From assembly GCA_963705305.1 (NCBI GenBank), contig OY970067.1, positions 1,024,001-1,088,000 of the forward strand: a stretch of DNA of 64,000 nt, written 5' to 3'. Position numbers: made by a program. Below, in pieces: positions 18,001 to 30,000 of the stretch (position 1 is its first letter; each line of letters begins with the position of its first letter). This DNA is from an uncultured Methylomirabilota bacterium (lineage in GTDB: Bacteria; Methylomirabilota; Methylomirabilia; Methylomirabilales; 2-02-FULL-66-22).

Positions 18001-21000
18001 AAGATGCCGGCGATATGGCCCTGCCCGAACTGCGCCCTGTCCTCCTCCTTCATGCCTTCCTTGGCGAACCCGTAGGCCATGAAGGAGGCCGGCGTTGCGC
18101 CGCCCGGCTTGAAGCCCATCCAGACTCCGACGATGGAGCCCAGGACGAGGGTTTTCCAGTACCGCTTCATGTCGGCCAGCGTGCTCGTGATGTCGCTCCA
18201 CCGCATCCGGACCTTGACCCCTTCGAAGCGGAGACCCTCCTCCACGGTGAGCAGGATCTCGCCGATGCCGAACAGGCCGATGACGGCGACGATGAAGTTG
18301 AAGCCGCCCATCAGCGGCACCAGGTTGAAGGTCAGGCGCAGCTGTCCGCTCACGACGTCGATGCCCACCGCGGCCATGATGAACCCGAGGGCGGTCGCCA
18401 CCACCGTCTTGATCGGGGACTTCCCCACCAGGCCGACGAAGGCGCTGAAGGTGAGCAGCATGACGCCGAAGACCTCGGGCGGCCCGAACCGCAGGGCAAA
18501 GGCGGCCAGGATGGGCGCGAAGAACGTCAGCATGATCGTGCCCAGGACGCCGCCGCAGAAGTGGGCGAAAAATGCGGCGCTGAGCGCCCTCCCGGCCTGG
18601 CCTTTCTTGGCCATGGGATAGCCGTCGAAGGTTGTGGCGACGGCCCACGGCTCACCCGGAATGTTGAAGAGGATGGAGCAGATGCAGCCTCCGTACAGGG
18701 CCCCCCAGTAGAGGGAGGCGAGCAGGATGACGGCGGCCACCGGAGGCATCACGAACGTGATGGGGATCAGGATGGCGCAGCCGTTGGCCCCGCCCAGCCC
18801 CGGCAACACGCCGACAATGACTCCCAGGATGAGCCCGACGATGGCGGTGATGAGATTGTACGGCTCGGCGGCGACCTTGAGCCCCATCAGCAGGTTGGGG
18901 AGAATTTCCATTTCCGGATGACTCCTTTCCTTTCACCCGCTCAGGTCAGAACCGGAGGATCTGAGCCCCGAACATCCCCATGGGCATTGGGATGAGGAAG
19001 ATCTTTTCAAACAGCCACCAGAACACGAGGGGAATGGGAATGCTGACGAGCAACACGGTTCTCCACCGGAATTGGCCGACCCAGCGGATGTATCCTATCA
19101 GGTAGATCATCGCCGCCACGTAGAGTCCGACCACCTCGGTCAGAAGGACCATCCCGCAGGCCGGGATGAAGACCGTGAGGACCGGCTTCATTCCCCCGGG
19201 GGGGACGAAGCGCTTCTCGCCCTTCACCGACGAGGTCCCCTTGGTGGCCTGCCGCATGATGATGAGGCAGCCGCCCACGACCAGGACGGCCATCAGCATC
19301 GGGAAGAACCCGGCCTGGGGTCCGTCGGCCCCCCAGCCGGCCCCCAGCTGGTAGGAATCCCAGCCCACCACCAGGCCGAGGGCTAAGAGGATCGCCGCCA
19401 CCAGAAGATCCGCCGACTTATTAGTCATTACTGCTCCTTCCTTGCCGACAAACTCACGATGGGCTGCTCCGATCTCAGAAGGAGTCCCCGGGAAGAAACG
19501 GCCCTCCTCCCCGGGGCTCCAAGCCGCCGCCCTCAGCTACTTCTTCAGCAAGCCGCCTTTTGCCATGAGCTCCTTGGTCATGGCATCCTTCTCTTCCAGC
19601 CACTTCACGTACTCGTCCCCGGAGAGGAAGGCGCCCTTGAGCGCATACTTCTCCAGATAGTCCTTCCACGAGGCGGTCTCCGTCACCTTCTTGAACAGGG
19701 AGACATAGCCCTCCTGAACGTCCTTGCCGATCTTGGGGGCAGCAAAGATGCCGCGGAGCATCATGTATTCCAGATCCACGCCTGTTGCCTCCTTCAGGGT
19801 CGGGATCTTATCCCACATCGGCAGGTGGATCCGATCGTGGGCGATCACCGCCAGGGGGCGCAGCTTCCCGGCCCGCCAGTGGCTGACGGCCTCGGCCGGA
19901 TTGTTCACCGTCGAGTCGATGTGCTTCCCCACCAGCTCCACTGCCACCGTTCCGCCCCCCTTGAAGGGCACGTAGGCGAACTTCAGGCCGAAGGCCTGCT
20001 CCAACTGCACGGTGATGATCTGGTCCTCCTGCTTGGTGCCAGTGCCGCCCATCTTGAACTTGCCCGGGGCCTTCTTCACGGCGTCGAAGTATTCCGTCGC
20101 CGTCTTGTACGGAGAATCCGCGTTCACCCACAGCACGAACCAGTCCAGGGCCAGGCGCGCGATCGGGGTCATGTCCTTCCAGCTGAAGGGCACCCCGGTC
20201 GCCAGGGGGGTCGTGAAGAGGTTGTCGAGGGTGATGATGACCATGTTGTCGTCGCCGGGCTTGCCCTTCATGTACATGAACCCTTCCGCCCCGGCGCCGC
20301 CCGCCCGGTTGACCACGATCCACGGCACGTCAGTGATCTTGTCCTTCTGGAAGAGGGGGGAGATGTAGCGGGCCATGATGTCGGCCCCGCCGCCGGTCCC
20401 TGCCGGAACGTTGAATTCCACCGGCTTCGTCGGCTGCCATTCGGCATTCGCCGCACTGCTCCACACGACCGGGATCGCCACGACCAGAGCTGCCACGGCG
20501 ACCCACACCCACACTGTCCGTCTGCACTTTCCTACCATGTCCTTCCTCCTTATGCCCGCCGCGACTTATGACATTAATTTGGGCGACCGCTCCCGGGCCC
20601 GCGGCGGCGCCCAGGATTTCGAGGGCCCCTCACCATCCCTTATATCTCGACCCTGACACCCGGCATGACCCTCCACGCCGAGCGTACGGGAGGTTGCCGA
20701 TTGTTGCCGCCGGAAGAAGGCATCTTGCTATCCGCCACCAGCGATTCACGATCTTCCGTTGTGAATCCCTCCACCGGCAGCCCCGTTGCCAGGGGGACTG
20801 CGATGAGATTTATGCCCTCAGGGGCCACGAGCCGCCTCGGGGGGTCAAGCAAACACTTGAGGGAATGATTAGGAGGCGGCGCGCCCTAGCAGAGCCGAGA
20901 GGAATCCCATGCCGGGTCGGGGACCTCCCGGCCCGCGGAGGATGCTTCCCGGAAGAGACAGGATCGAGATAGGGTTCGAATGTGTTCGGAGGCGAATGGC

Positions 21001-27000: not shown

Positions 27001-30000
27001 TGCAGGCCGCTGGCGCTGGTGGTGGCTGGTTCGGTCACGCGCCCACTCCCGCCGCCGGCTGGCCGTCAGCTTTCAGGGCCGGCGCCTCCTTTTCCCGCGA
27101 GGCGAAGACCAGCCGCTCCATCTCTTCCAGATGTTCGTACATCCGCTGCTCGGCCCCCTCGGCATCGCCCTTCTCGATGGCGCGGAGTATGGCCCGGTGG
27201 TTCCGGAGCGACCGGCCCGGCCGGTCGTTCAGCTGCACCGACGCCTCTCGCGTCTCGCGCAGCATATCCATGAGATTGGTCATGATCTGGAACAGCACCT
27301 CGTTCCCGGCGGCCTCTGTCAGCCGGAAATGAAAATCGGTGTCCGCCTTGAGCCCGGTCTTCCCGTCCGCAACGTCGGCCTCCTGCCGGGCCAGGGCCTC
27401 CCGCATGCGCTCTACCTGCTCGGGCGTGGCCCGGAGCGCCGCAAACGCGGCCAGGTCGGGCTCGATCACCCGGCGAACCTCGAAGAGCTTTCGCTGGTTG
27501 CGCCAGAACTGAAGCAGGCTGGCGGCAATGGCACCGTTTGGATGGCTGCCCGTGCCGTCGGCGAGAAAGGTTCCTTCCCCCGGCCGCGTGTCGACCATCC
27601 CGAGGGACTCCATGGACCGAATCGCTTCCCGCACCGTCGATCGGCCCACCCCCAGCGTCTGGGCCAGCTCGCGCTCGGCGGGCAGGCGATCACCCGGCTT
27701 CAGTCCTCCCGAGGTGATCAATTCCCTCACCTGGTCGATGATTTCCTCCGATGCTCTGGTCTTGCGAACGGCGCGGAAGGCCTTGTGACTCACGGATTTG
27801 ATGGTCGCCATCTCATTCACGGCACCCGGCCTGAAAACCCCGGATCCCGGCTCCACAAAAGAGACTCCCCCATCGCCGCGTCATCCGATTGGGAATTCGG
27901 AGTGCGTAGGTCAGGAAAGGTTATATGGCCAGATGGTCGGCTGGCCTGACCACACCTACAATATGCAACGGACATCGCGCCGCGTCAAGACCAATAATTA
28001 TAGAAACTTATATGACCAGACTAGTCTGAATAGGTGAGCGAAGCGATCTCAGCCTCCCATCACTGGAGGCAGGAACATCGCGCCGGAAGGAAGGAATTTA
28101 GCGCGGCAGACTTCACACCACCGGCTGGAGTACCGTCACTCCACAGTCGACCAGCAGGGTGTGCGCCGTGATGCCGGTTGCGTCGCATGCGAGGTACAGG
28201 GCCGCATTAGCGATGTCGTCCACATTGGGGATCCGACCCATGGGGCTCACCTGGATGTTCTTCTCGACCACCTCCCGGGGCCAATCCGTGAAACCCGTAT
28301 CCAGAAAGCCGGGCGCAATGGCGTTCACGCGGATGTTGTCCTTGGCGAACGCGCGGGCCAGGGATTTCGTGATCGTTCCCAGAGCGGCCTTGGAGGCGCC
28401 GTAGATTATCGAGCTCCCGGCCCCCTGGTAGGCCGCAATCGAGGTGATATTCACGATAGCACCGCCGCCCGTCTTGATCAGGTGCGGGATGGCGGCCCGC
28501 GAGCAGTAGATGGGCCCCTTGACGTTGACCGCCCAGGTCCGCTCGAGAACCTCCTCCGTCAGGCCGTCGAGGTCGCGATGGGGGGTAATCTTGCTCCAGC
28601 CCGCGTTGTTCACCAGGATGTCCAGGCGGCCCAGCTTGTCAACCGTCTCCCGCACCAGCCGGCGCGCCTCACTATCCTGGGACACGTCGGCCTTGACGGC
28701 AAACGCCCGGCGGCCGAGCTTGCAGATCGCCTCGGCGGTCTCCTCTCCCGCTTTCTGCCGCCGGGAGTAGTTCACAATCACATTCGCCCCTTCCTGGGCG
28801 AACTTCAGGGAGATCGCGCGGCCCATTCCCGTCCCCCCGCCCGTCACCAATGCCGCCTTGCCCATCAGCTTCATTGCTCGCTCCTGATCCTGGCGTTGAA
28901 CAGTGTTAATCGCCTGGCGGATCTGTCTTCCGGCTGTCGGCAGGAATGGCAATCCCGGCCGAGGCCATTTCGAAATATACCATGACTCGCAGGAGGGCGC
29001 CATGCAAAGCCAGGAGAGGCGAGCGCGATTGCGGGGCTGGACAGCCAGCCGTGTTCGGGCGGGACCCAAAAAGCGTCGCCCCGGGCCCATTCGGCAATGT
29101 GGGTCCGGGGCGACACGAGAGACCGGCCTGCCCCGGAGGGTCTCGGGCGGGCCGGGGAAGAGCCTAGAAGTCGTACTTCATCATGAAGCTGAGAATCTGC
29201 GCCTCGTAGTTGGGTGCGGTCGCCCCCAGGAACGGCGTGATTGCGCTCGTGTCGACGTTCCCCATGTACGGCGCCATGGAGTCCATGGCGAAATTCTGCT
29301 CCGTGTACCGCTCGTAGGTGTAGCCCAGCTGGGCCGAGAGCTTCTGGGTGATGAAGTAGCGCGCAGTGATCTTGACGGTCTGGAGCAAGCTGTCGACGTT
29401 CGGCCAGTTCGAGGCGTAGGCGCCCGCGAGGTTGCTGGCGCTTCCCGTGGTTGCCAGGGTCGGTGTCCCCAGGTTGCTGGCGTCAATCCTGGTCTGCCCA
29501 AAGGTGATCGAGTATCCCGCGGTGATCTTCAGCTTCTTCGGGATCACGTCGAGATCAGCGTTCAAACCCACCGTGTGGAAGAAATCCGCGCTGCTGCTCT
29601 TCCAGTCGTTGGCGGCAAAGTTGTACACGGTGTTCGCCCCGACCACCGGGATGTACCGGTTCTGCTGGTTGTACATGTCGCATTCGAAGGTGTAATCGGC
29701 CGACAGCTTCAGCCAGTTCAACGGGGTCCACCCCAGGCTGAAGCCGGCGGAGAGATCGTTGTCGTACGTCAGCCCATACGCTGAATTGTAGTAATTGTCC
29801 TCCGCATAGCTAAACGTGGCGGAAGGCGTCACGGTCTCCCAGGGGGTGAGCTGGAACAGCAGATCTACCTTGTTCTGTCGCCGGTCGGCCTGATCGAACA
29901 TCACGAACTGCGGCAGCTGGCCTGCCGGAGCCACGTAATTGTTGACCGTTCGCTGGCTGTAGCTGTACGTCACCCGGCTCAGGAGCCACTCGATCGGCGT

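Follow-up and report, generated by a model that had tools for sequence, protein, structure and literature searches.

The closest described system is the oxalate oxidoreductase (OOR) of Moorella thermoacetica (EC 1.2.7.10; PDB ids 5c4i, 5exd and 5exe; NCBIfam NF045790-2), and in the literature reached OOR has been characterised from one acetogen only. Roles of residues R31, R109 and D116 in OOR are described in PMC5020499, where D116 is named as important. Four-subunit POR/VOR enzymes (PorA-D; 9bt4) have the same fold and the same gene order, gamma-delta-alpha-beta, and domain III binds CoA (PMC13768988). Further known systems relevant to oxalate are Oxc/Frc/OxlT oxalotrophy (Oxalobacter, Proteobacteria) and oxalyl-CoA assimilation by oxalate-CoA ligase and PanE2. 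Hydrogenogenic CO oxidation, in which a CODH acts with an energy-converting group-4 hydrogenase, offers a comparison for the fate of the electrons.

The window, by which we mean the whole 64,000-nt stretch of DNA analysed, contains an operon with the gene order FadR, Cdc48, gamma, delta, alpha, beta, TctCBA. The OOR encoded here is called type 1, and the second enzyme of the genome, at C1:605864-609419 (C1 positions are contig coordinates), is called type 2. The features of the window are as follows.

28113..28874 (-): SDR oxidoreductase, upstream of the operator and syntenic (profile matches and synteny)
27934..27951 (-): FadR-type operator GGTCnGrCCA-nnn-GACCA, ~130 bp before the FadR gene (exact pattern match)
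27035..27856 (-): FadR/GntR-family regulator gene that opens the operon; its start is probably near 27820 (NanR/LldR/PdhR-like matches under cut-offs; syntenic in relatives)
24843..27038 (-): Cdc48-type AAA+ ATPase (TIGR01243 758 vs 802.65; PF02359)
24190..24798 (-): OOR gamma subunit (domain III), without the Gly-rich GxGGQG loop (NF045790 242.8 > 230)
23833..24159 (-): OOR delta subunit, two CxxCxxCxxxC [4Fe-4S] motifs (NF045790 positions 227-316)
22631..23821 (-): OOR alpha subunit, with YPIRP, R109, D116 and Q211 (NF045791 566.6 > 500; 5c4i_A E 1.4e-151)
21572..22546 (-): OOR beta subunit, with TPP motif GDG..DN, cluster cysteines and N143 (NF045792 597.6 > 590; 5c4i_C E 2.5e-164)
19537..20538 (-): TctC binding protein (PF03401)
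18946..19428 (-): TctB (PF07331)
17394..18911 (-): TctA permease (PF01970)
16434..17147 (-): TerC/YjbE membrane protein, conserved after the Tct module (TIGR03717 222.4 > 134.8; synteny)
15500..16432 (-): NAD-dependent epimerase/dehydratase-family gene, syntenic with type 1 (weak SDR-type matches; synteny)
10999..14577 (-): downstream NifJ, an independent pyruvate:ferredoxin oxidoreductase with YPITP (TIGR02176 1868 > 911)

Moorella OOR 5c4i is the top PDB match for both the alpha and the beta subunit of the window enzyme, with ~58% identity for alpha and, as the preliminary description had stated, ~75% for beta (230 of 305 aligned residues), both counted by hand from the alignments. The enzyme lies over all three NCBIfam OOR equivalog cut-offs (566.6 > 500, 597.6 > 590 and 242.8 > 230), and its match scores to four-subunit POR/VOR are far below those to OOR. 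The oxalate-specific residues said to be kept, namely R31 of the YPIRP motif, R109, D116 and beta N143, are all in place, as is Q211, and the TctCBA genes do lie beside the OOR genes. The TPP motif and three sets of [4Fe-4S] cysteines reproduce the three-cluster layout of Moorella OOR. Whereas POR has YPITP and a Gly-rich CoA loop, both enzymes of this genome are without either; the GxGGQG loop, which in domain III we take to be CoA-binding, is missing from 51/51 type-1 gamma rows (some rows being one genome repeated); five other OFOR gammas encoded in this genome do have it. Judged by sequence, the window enzyme is very probably a true Moorella-type OOR, and with the missing domain-III loop as proxy its oxidation of oxalate is predicted to be independent of CoA. 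It differs from Moorella OOR in having separate gamma and delta genes, which are fused in Moorella, in its accompanying Cdc48 gene, and in a host without the Wood-Ljungdahl pathway. The Cdc48 gene adjoins type 1 in 12/12 genus genomes read and is near 4/6 type-1 and 0/73 type-2 GTDB loci, accompanying type 1 only.

Selenocysteine in OOR alpha was considered and rejected, as the TGA stops in one relative (G014) and the short matches in three others (G015, G016 and G018) are frameshifts. In one sediment RNA run, which holds only 8% of the words, a 3593-bp contig ~94% alike extends from beta to Cdc48; as contigs cannot show transcription, this is no more than a faint hint of expression. No cultured carriers were found on plasmids, the best match being 34%.

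The absence of a Wood-Ljungdahl pathway holds, FTHFS and CdhC both being absent from the genome; in the genus they occur in 7/20 and 3/20 assemblies, never together in one. A weak prismane match at C1:877792, tried as a hidden CODH, covers the N-terminal 44 positions only, in an ORF without a family match, and was rejected as degenerate and CooS-like. Equally, neither Oxc nor Frc is found over cut-off in the genome, and OxdC was not found. In contrast to Oxc/Frc/OxlT oxalotrophy, no formate is therefore expected here; OxlT with oxalate-binding residues is shared with that system. OxdC as the partner of OxlT was rejected, being absent from 5/5 genomes. Oxalate carbon assimilation in this genome was likewise rejected, since no ligase, PanE or malate synthase orthologues were found with the queries used (best matches 29% and 27-28%), whereas Acidobacteria loci have the ligase/PanE/aminotransferase/malate synthase arm of oxalyl-CoA assimilation. 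Because the Wood-Ljungdahl pathway, an oxalate-CoA ligase and a PanE-type oxalyl-CoA reductase are all missing, oxalate would serve as a source of electrons rather than of carbon.

The preliminary description spoke of two Moorella-type enzymes, which applies to the window enzyme; the second falls under all three OOR cut-offs (alpha 419.4 < 500, beta 342.1 < 590, gamma-delta 88.7 < 230) and belongs to a clade of its own, two further members of which score 376.7 and 379.9 in the NCBIfam OOR test. In a FastTree tree of 49 selected rows, without the Moorella sequence and with six POR outgroups, types 1 and 2 emerge as sister clades (support 100). As reported before, YPIRP occurs in just two of the ten OFOR alpha-type ORFs of the genome (two IOR-like ORFs being judged by motif only), the second of these enzymes adjoins two OxlT genes (TIGR04259 467.5 and 458.9 vs 335), and it has Ala at OOR position 116. 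Type 2 is 46% identical to type-1 alpha and shares with Moorella OOR R31, R109, Q211, N143 and the fused gamma-delta. YPIRP, R109, Q211 and beta N143 are kept in every covering row read, and the GxGGQG loop is missing from 123/123 type-2 rows (again with one genome repeated in some). The switch loop reads DDPGAFG, compared with DPPGDFG in the Moorella type. Earlier OOR papers may list type-2-like homologues.

Gene neighbourhoods bear on the substrate. Among 73 type-2 GTDB loci, OxlT is a neighbour in 32, Tct in 10, and an acyl-CoA ligase with PanE in 12; in PDB this ligase comes closest to oxalate-CoA ligases (428 bits, with the next family at 255), and PanE2 is assigned from gene context. Oxc and OxdC are absent from two genomes whose loci carry the ligase, and one genome of the Acidobacteria class (L245) has type 1 in the OxlT/ligase/PanE setting seen with type 2. 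The second OxlT gene of the present genome keeps Q34, Y35, Y124, R272, W324 and K355, with Phe at Y328 and Tyr at W352, the oxalate-binding residues being taken from PMC10070484. A TctC subfamily accompanies both enzyme types and swaps with OxlT, and OOR genes are found in 20 of the 24 metagenome TctC loci having at least 1 kb upstream; from this gene context the window TctC is a probable oxalate receptor. Neither oxc nor frc was present in the two PanE and four TctC plasmid regions read.

The missing CoA loop, the shared transporters, the oxalate-CoA ligase and PanE neighbours and the shared FadR operator make type 2 probably an OOR, and on sequence evidence we consider oxidation of oxalate by it likely, a stronger case than was made before. 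Database source names instead label it a pyruvate ferredoxin oxidoreductase, and a housekeeping role of that kind would accord with its near-core distribution, with PPDK and acetolactate synthase following the operon in 16/20 and 15/20 loci, and with PEP carboxykinase near nine Acidobacteria loci. However, type 2 fails the POR tests, since it has no YPITP motif (Arg, not Thr31), no Gly-rich CoA loop in domain III and scores under the POR cut-offs, and its top NCBIfam family is OOR rather than POR. Moreover, this genome has NifJ, PDH E1 is over cut-off in 5/5 carriers tested, and the operon comes with a transporter and an operator of its own (19/20); a pyruvate enzyme is thus highly improbable. 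Another view gives type 2 a different but similar small acid as substrate (oxamate, glyoxylate or mesoxalate), the loss of D116 marking the switch and both types being kept because their substrates differ, as they are by five genus members besides this genome. In every type-2 row read another residue indeed stands at position 116 (Ala, or Ser in one), and a new Asp appears at alpha 113 and, in most rows, at beta 145. Amidase-family and GGT-family genes lie beside some loci, the GGT having as best PDB match 5hft, which we take to be the oxamate amidohydrolase HpxW, and TctC relatives in Skermanella and Cupriavidus are near glyoxylate genes, not oxc/frc. Yet an oxamate amidase would supply the enzyme with oxalate, the presence of R31 implies a second anion, and the shared operator, the OxlT with intact oxalate site and the oxalate-CoA ligase point to oxalate, so that a different acid seems unlikely.

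Operator matrices were built from the OOR promoters of other genomes and used to rank 11.3 million positions of this genome. The window operator at 27934..27951 is the top genome-wide match of both matrices, and the promoter of the HdrA-Mvh hydrogenase ranks second or third. With the matrix of 39 type-2 promoter sites the type-1 promoter scores 22.7, the OxlT site 22.0 and HdrA-Mvh 21.4, the next position being at 15.2; with that of 15 type-1 sites the HdrA-Mvh promoter is second. Besides both OOR operons, HdrA-MvhDGA also has this operator upstream here, and in relatives it precedes a group-4 [NiFe] hydrogenase operon. A reversed control pattern gives 31 matches vs 28 for the operator pattern, so raw site counts prove nothing and only position does; within the order, 24 of these 28 exact matches lie ahead of operons that are OOR-linked or encode a hydrogenase. 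Taken by itself, the short 11-bp palindrome was discarded as being at chance level (3 vs 2.5 in the window, 4 vs ~6 in the genome). This genome's own group-4 promoter has the first half-site only (score 5.9), and one relative (G007) has the hydrogenase with a near-intact site (score 25.3) and no OOR match. OOR and hydrogenase genes are apparently under the same regulator, a regulon link that is new here, and any of eight further FadR paralogues in this genome (29-36% identity) might read the operator.

Because the operator precedes HdrA-Mvh here and a group-4 hydrogenase in relatives, electrons from oxalate may reach H2-cycling enzymes. The proposal that oxalate is a low-potential donor for respiration is therefore retained in part: its oxidation to give reduced ferredoxin without acetogenesis is supported, and respiration is just one of two sinks. 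Three group-4 large subunits and operons have both CxxC Ni-binding motifs and membrane antiporter-like subunits, and a fourth group-4-like operon is without the Ni motifs. The free energy of oxalate -> 2 CO2 + H2 is -25 to -35 kJ/mol, estimated from formation energies, and with the regulon this suggests that H2 may be formed from oxalate. As in hydrogenogenic CO oxidation, a low-potential donor would be converted to CO2 via ferredoxin at similar free energy with a group-4 [NiFe] enzyme present; here the donor is oxalate, the link is a shared operator rather than gene adjacency, and the function is putative. The group-4 enzyme is no obligatory partner of OOR, an idea rejected as a general rule for want of co-occurrence: with the query used it is found in 6/17 OOR-positive genus relatives and 0/8 in family f2, and also in 3/3 genus members without OOR. 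The 11/17 OOR-positive genus members without it leave both sinks open, and we put the chance that hydrogenases are a real electron sink in this genus at about even.

It is also possible, at slightly less than even chances, that both enzymes oxidise oxalate and ferredoxin is re-oxidised mainly by respiration, the hydrogenase sites being incidental or serving H2 uptake. The genome carries a full aerobic and NO-reducing chain, comprising a complex I with NuoEFG, a second nuo operon without EFG, ACIII-like genes with an aa3 oxidase, two qNor-like genes and MtrAB, and most OOR carriers in the order have no group-4 hydrogenase match with the query used. Electrons would reach quinone either from a Nuo-like complex lacking NuoEFG or by way of NADH and complex I, and pass on to ACIII/aa3 oxidase, NO reductase or MtrAB. 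Against a respiratory sink, neither ranking places a high-scoring operator before nuo, ACIII, qNor or mtr genes, no Rnf was found in this genome, and none of four molybdopterin matches is of NarG length.

On balance we favor, with some confidence, an inducible oxalate-oxidation regulon in a non-acetogen whose electrons probably pass in part to hydrogenases. Oxalate would be taken up by TctABC or OxlT and split without CoA to 2 CO2 by both TPP/[4Fe-4S] enzymes, type 1 by its established family membership and type 2 by a presumed one, with two electrons at about -550 to -600 mV passing to ferredoxin. A FadR repressor encoded in each operon would act via the common operator, its binding and effector being putative. 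In this genus at least part of the electrons would probably go to hydrogenases (oxalate -> 2 CO2 + H2), with ion pumping in the group-4 case; they would otherwise leave by the quinone chain, the likely route in lineages that lack these hydrogenases.

The tally for the order, previously put at 29/65, is here 30/65 relatives at ≥43% identity (by family 17/20, 8/15, 0/1, 3/6, 0/2, 1/1 and 1/20), and pmoA is confined to a 20-genome genus (10/20). The trait is common in non-methanotrophic Methylomirabilales as claimed, but is no speciality of the order, type 2 being commoner in the rest of the class, where it was matched in 139/185 genomes. Oxc is over cut-off in 1/251 genomes; among sampled genomes of the Acidobacteria class type 2 occurs in 12/201 and Oxc in 0/201. 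The consulted portion of a 2024 review of environmental oxalotrophy gives oxc, frc, oxdC and oxlT as marker genes, without mention of an OOR route (PMC13409138). Should type 2 prove to be an OOR, oxc/frc surveys would be missing oxalate oxidisers that make up about three quarters of the genomes in a widespread uncultured lineage (139/185), and likewise the 12/201 Acidobacteria-class genomes. A more tentative proposition, rather doubtful as a whole, is that the OOR route is both major and uncounted, with type 2 an OOR near-core in the Rokubacteriales-like lineage and present in oxc-less Acidobacteria, Chloroflexota and others, that TctC binds oxalate, and that this genus conserves energy from oxalate -> 2 CO2 + H2 via co-regulated hydrogenases, as a counterpart of hydrogenogenic CO oxidation. 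Oxalate may be the ligand of an orphan TctC subfamily, type 2 is an enzyme variant that probes the need for Asp116, and the conversion of oxalate to H2 would be a testable new energy metabolism, with oxalate as a concrete substrate to try in cultivating these groups.

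The minus strand of the window encodes, in this order, SDR, FadR, Cdc48, gamma, delta, alpha, beta, TctC, TctB, TctA, TerC and an epimerase-family gene, with NifJ further down; its oxalate oxidoreductase (OOR) is termed type 1 here. A second, sister-clade enzyme (type 2) is encoded elsewhere on the single contig (C1) of the genome, the assembly of which is 98.9% complete and 6.5% contaminated by marker count.

29164-32345 (-), MtrB/MtrA porin-decaheme pair (TIGR03509 and TIGR03508 over cut-off)
27035-27856 (-), FadR
24843-27038 (-), Cdc48
24190-24798 (-), type-1 gamma
23833-24159 (-), type-1 delta
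22631-23821 (-), type-1 alpha
21572-22546 (-), type-1 beta
14638-15282 (-), protein disulfide oxidoreductase (TIGR02187 model positions 2-139)
C1:605864-609419, type 2: fused gamma-delta, alpha and beta, with FadR before and two OxlT after

Type-1 alpha, beta and gamma score 566.6, 597.6 and 242.8 against NCBIfam oxalate oxidoreductase cut-offs of 500, 590 and 230, respectively, and the best structural match of alpha and beta, the subunits searched, is Moorella OOR (5c4i). The description of both enzymes as Moorella-type in the preliminary description therefore holds for type 1 but not for type 2, for which OOR is the best family, yet with scores below all three cut-offs. Type 1 belongs to an OOR family already known, and its setting is new. 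Cdc48 adjoins type 1 in 12/12 genus genomes and is found at none of the 73 type-2 loci among the best 80 of 410 GTDB relatives. Because OOR is reportedly suicide-inactivated by pyruvate (title of Pierce 2017), our guess is that Cdc48 serves as a reactivase for type-1 OOR. The gap of ∼1 kb between beta and TctC (window 20539-21571), where relatives have OxlT or other genes, contains an ORF at 20886-21347 with no NCBIfam match; OxlT replaces or joins Tct at type 1 in 4/12 genus genomes. In regions of Skermanella, Azospirillum and Cupriavidus records (L234-L237), TctC proteins of this subfamily (47-58%) are accompanied by TerC and GntR and by no OFOR (2-oxoacid:ferredoxin oxidoreductase), and glyoxylate carboligase or glyoxylate aminotransferase genes are nearby in two of these four. 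Elsewhere in the window, the ORF at 14638-15282 ends at VTPT-stop with its continuation in the downstream piece, and the predicted product is likely a selenocysteine protein. No report of OOR in this phylum, or of H2 from oxalate, was found in the literature searched, outside which the primary OOR papers lie; homologues of this kind may already be listed in Pierce 2010 and 2017, Gibson 2015 and 2016 (two papers), or their supplements.

Type 2 retains R31, R109, Q211 and beta N143 (Moorella OOR numbering), and has DDPGAFG at the position of DPPGDFG in OOR. In a FastTree phylogeny of 49 rows, with Moorella left out and long branches meeting at the root, types 1 and 2 are sister clades of 10 and 33 rows, each with support of 99; the two are joined with support of 100, apart from six pyruvate oxidoreductase rows. 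The Gly-rich domain-III loop, which we take to be the CoA-binding loop, is missing from 51/51 type-1 and 123/123 type-2 rows (repeats included) and present in five other OFOR gammas of this genome. Binding of CoA by domain III is described in PMC13768988.

Among the best 80 of 410 GTDB relatives, 73 loci are type 2, with OxlT at 32, Tct at 10 and either at 42, and OxlT or Tct occurs at 4/6 type-1 loci. The OxlT of this genome keeps R272 and K355, which bind oxalate according to PMC10070484. At 12 of the same 73 type-2 loci, a PanE-family gene accompanies an acyl-CoA ligase that matches oxalate-CoA ligases best among known structures, often also with glyoxylate aminotransferase and malate synthase. 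PMC12686821 identifies the panE2 product as an oxalyl-CoA reductase, and the neighbouring PanE-family genes are candidates for this function by family and context rather than by proven panE2 orthology. Neither Oxc nor OxdC was found in two genomes with such loci, so no oxidative arm other than the OFOR can be seen there; in one genome (L245) type 1 occupies exactly the same setting. The loop loss, the OxlT/Tct and ligase/PanE neighbours, the occurrence of type 1 in the same settings and the common operator indicate that type 2 is probably an OOR. Counting against this assignment are the loss of D116 and the presence of PPDK after the operon in 16/20 class loci, and the amidase and GGT neighbours of type-2 loci allow action on oxamate instead. 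A GGT-family gene (best PDB 5hft) or an acetamidase/formamidase-family gene adjoins the enzyme at several loci (L051, L041, L114; L045, L059, L078, L095, L097, L098), which points to a supply of oxalate from the degradation of oxamate or purines. Type 2 is thus a variant of wide occurrence that probably functions as an OOR does, although the tests used here place it outside the family.

At a threshold of at least 43%, 30/65 order relatives match (unpublished G031 and G041 included), 29/45 outside the pmoA-bearing genus versus 1/20 inside; a partial operon in G063 and a further, unread match in G021 come in addition. Close homologues have source names of NC10 or Methylomirabilis, consistent with the taxonomy given previously, and the rest of the class, we infer, is Rokubacteriales. 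A type-2 alpha query, to which type 1 also scores, matches 169/251 phylum genomes at E 1e-95, among them 139/185 outside the order (unpublished G420 and G421 included). All 20 loci read outside the order have gamma-delta, beta and TctCBA; alpha is called at 19, with YPIRP in 18 and one cut short. Oxc exceeds its cut-off in 1/251 phylum genomes (five candidates scored per genome), and PDH is present in 5/5 type-2 carriers tested. For one Acidobacteria genome the whole class was compared as well: 12/201 match (this central genome and unpublished G140 included) and Oxc was found in 0/201.

No FTHFS, CdhC, Oxc, Frc or OxdC was found in the genome under study. FTHFS occurs in 7/20 genus relatives and CdhC in 3/65 order relatives, never both in one assembly, many of which are incomplete; in G012, G016 and G018, which also carry type-1 OOR, CODH and ACS are matched and FTHFS is not. 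At C1:876520-878700 (L133) a degenerate CooS-like ORF has a CooF-like ferredoxin on one side and an NAD-linked oxidoreductase on the other; five relatives show similarly weak matches. Near transposase-like ORFs lies a third homologue of OxlT, split into two pieces (C1:220304-221869, L129).

TGGTCnGACCA-like sites precede FadR at 28/89 loci, versus 1.8 in shuffles; the genome has eight other FadR paralogues. A matrix of 15 distinct type-1 promoter sites from other genomes, applied to both strands, puts the window site at the top with 27.9. C1:4529697, which lies ∼240 bp before hdrA-mvhD-mvhG-mvhA and further hdr and mvh genes, follows with 21.6, and a coding match is third with 19.3. A matrix of 39 type-2 sites scores the window site at 22.7, that before OxlT at 22.0, HdrA at 21.4 and the next at 15.2. 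Five OOR-positive relatives have type-1 matrix scores of 16.7-23.9 before their orthologous group-4 hydrogenase operon; at this place G007 scores 7.1 and the genome under study, with the first half-site only, 5.9. Scores of the type-2 matrix are 14.7-33.0 (25.3 in G007). The exact pattern yields 28 sites in 18/66 genomes (reversed control, 31), 18 before OOR-linked genes, four before group-4 operons, two before hdrA and four elsewhere, a test that is not independent because the pattern was checked beforehand against hydrogenase sites. Since the relatives are kin, the hydrogenase sites may represent two inherited events, and of all the claims in this analysis the OOR-hydrogenase link goes furthest and has the least certainty. 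Other genes also have operator matches before them at L279 (G039), L280 (unpublished G041) and L290 (G014): a pair that by eye resembles MerR/HspR and Mrp, and a further ORF.

Beyond the observed genes, residues, shared site and absence of alternative pathways, oxalate would be taken up into the cell and oxidized without CoA to 2 CO2, which would reduce ferredoxin, and FadR would control the OOR operons. Besides three group-4 enzymes, whose Ni motifs are intact, the genome encodes group-3 and Mvh/Hdr systems. It also encodes complex I, MtrAB, two qNor-like proteins and, together with ACIII-like genes, an aa3 oxidase; no Rnf was found in it. Its second nuo operon (C1:1165600-1175000, L123/L124) comprises A, C, D, H, J, K, L, M and N without E, F and G, and nuoB and nuoI are seen in neither nuo operon among the gene calls. 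The MtrB/MtrA pair, a possible Fe(III) outlet, lies directly upstream of the type-1 operon and nearby in five relatives with long contigs. Conversion of oxalate to CO2 and H2 yields -25 to -35 kJ/mol, as computed from formation energies. As to the sink, the position of the operator speaks for hydrogenases. The group-4 enzyme is present in 6/17 OOR-positive genus relatives, 0/8 in family f2 and 3/3 OOR-negative genus members, which argues that hydrogenases are optional in this role. Both outlets, hydrogenases and respiration, are likely in use, depending on condition and lineage.
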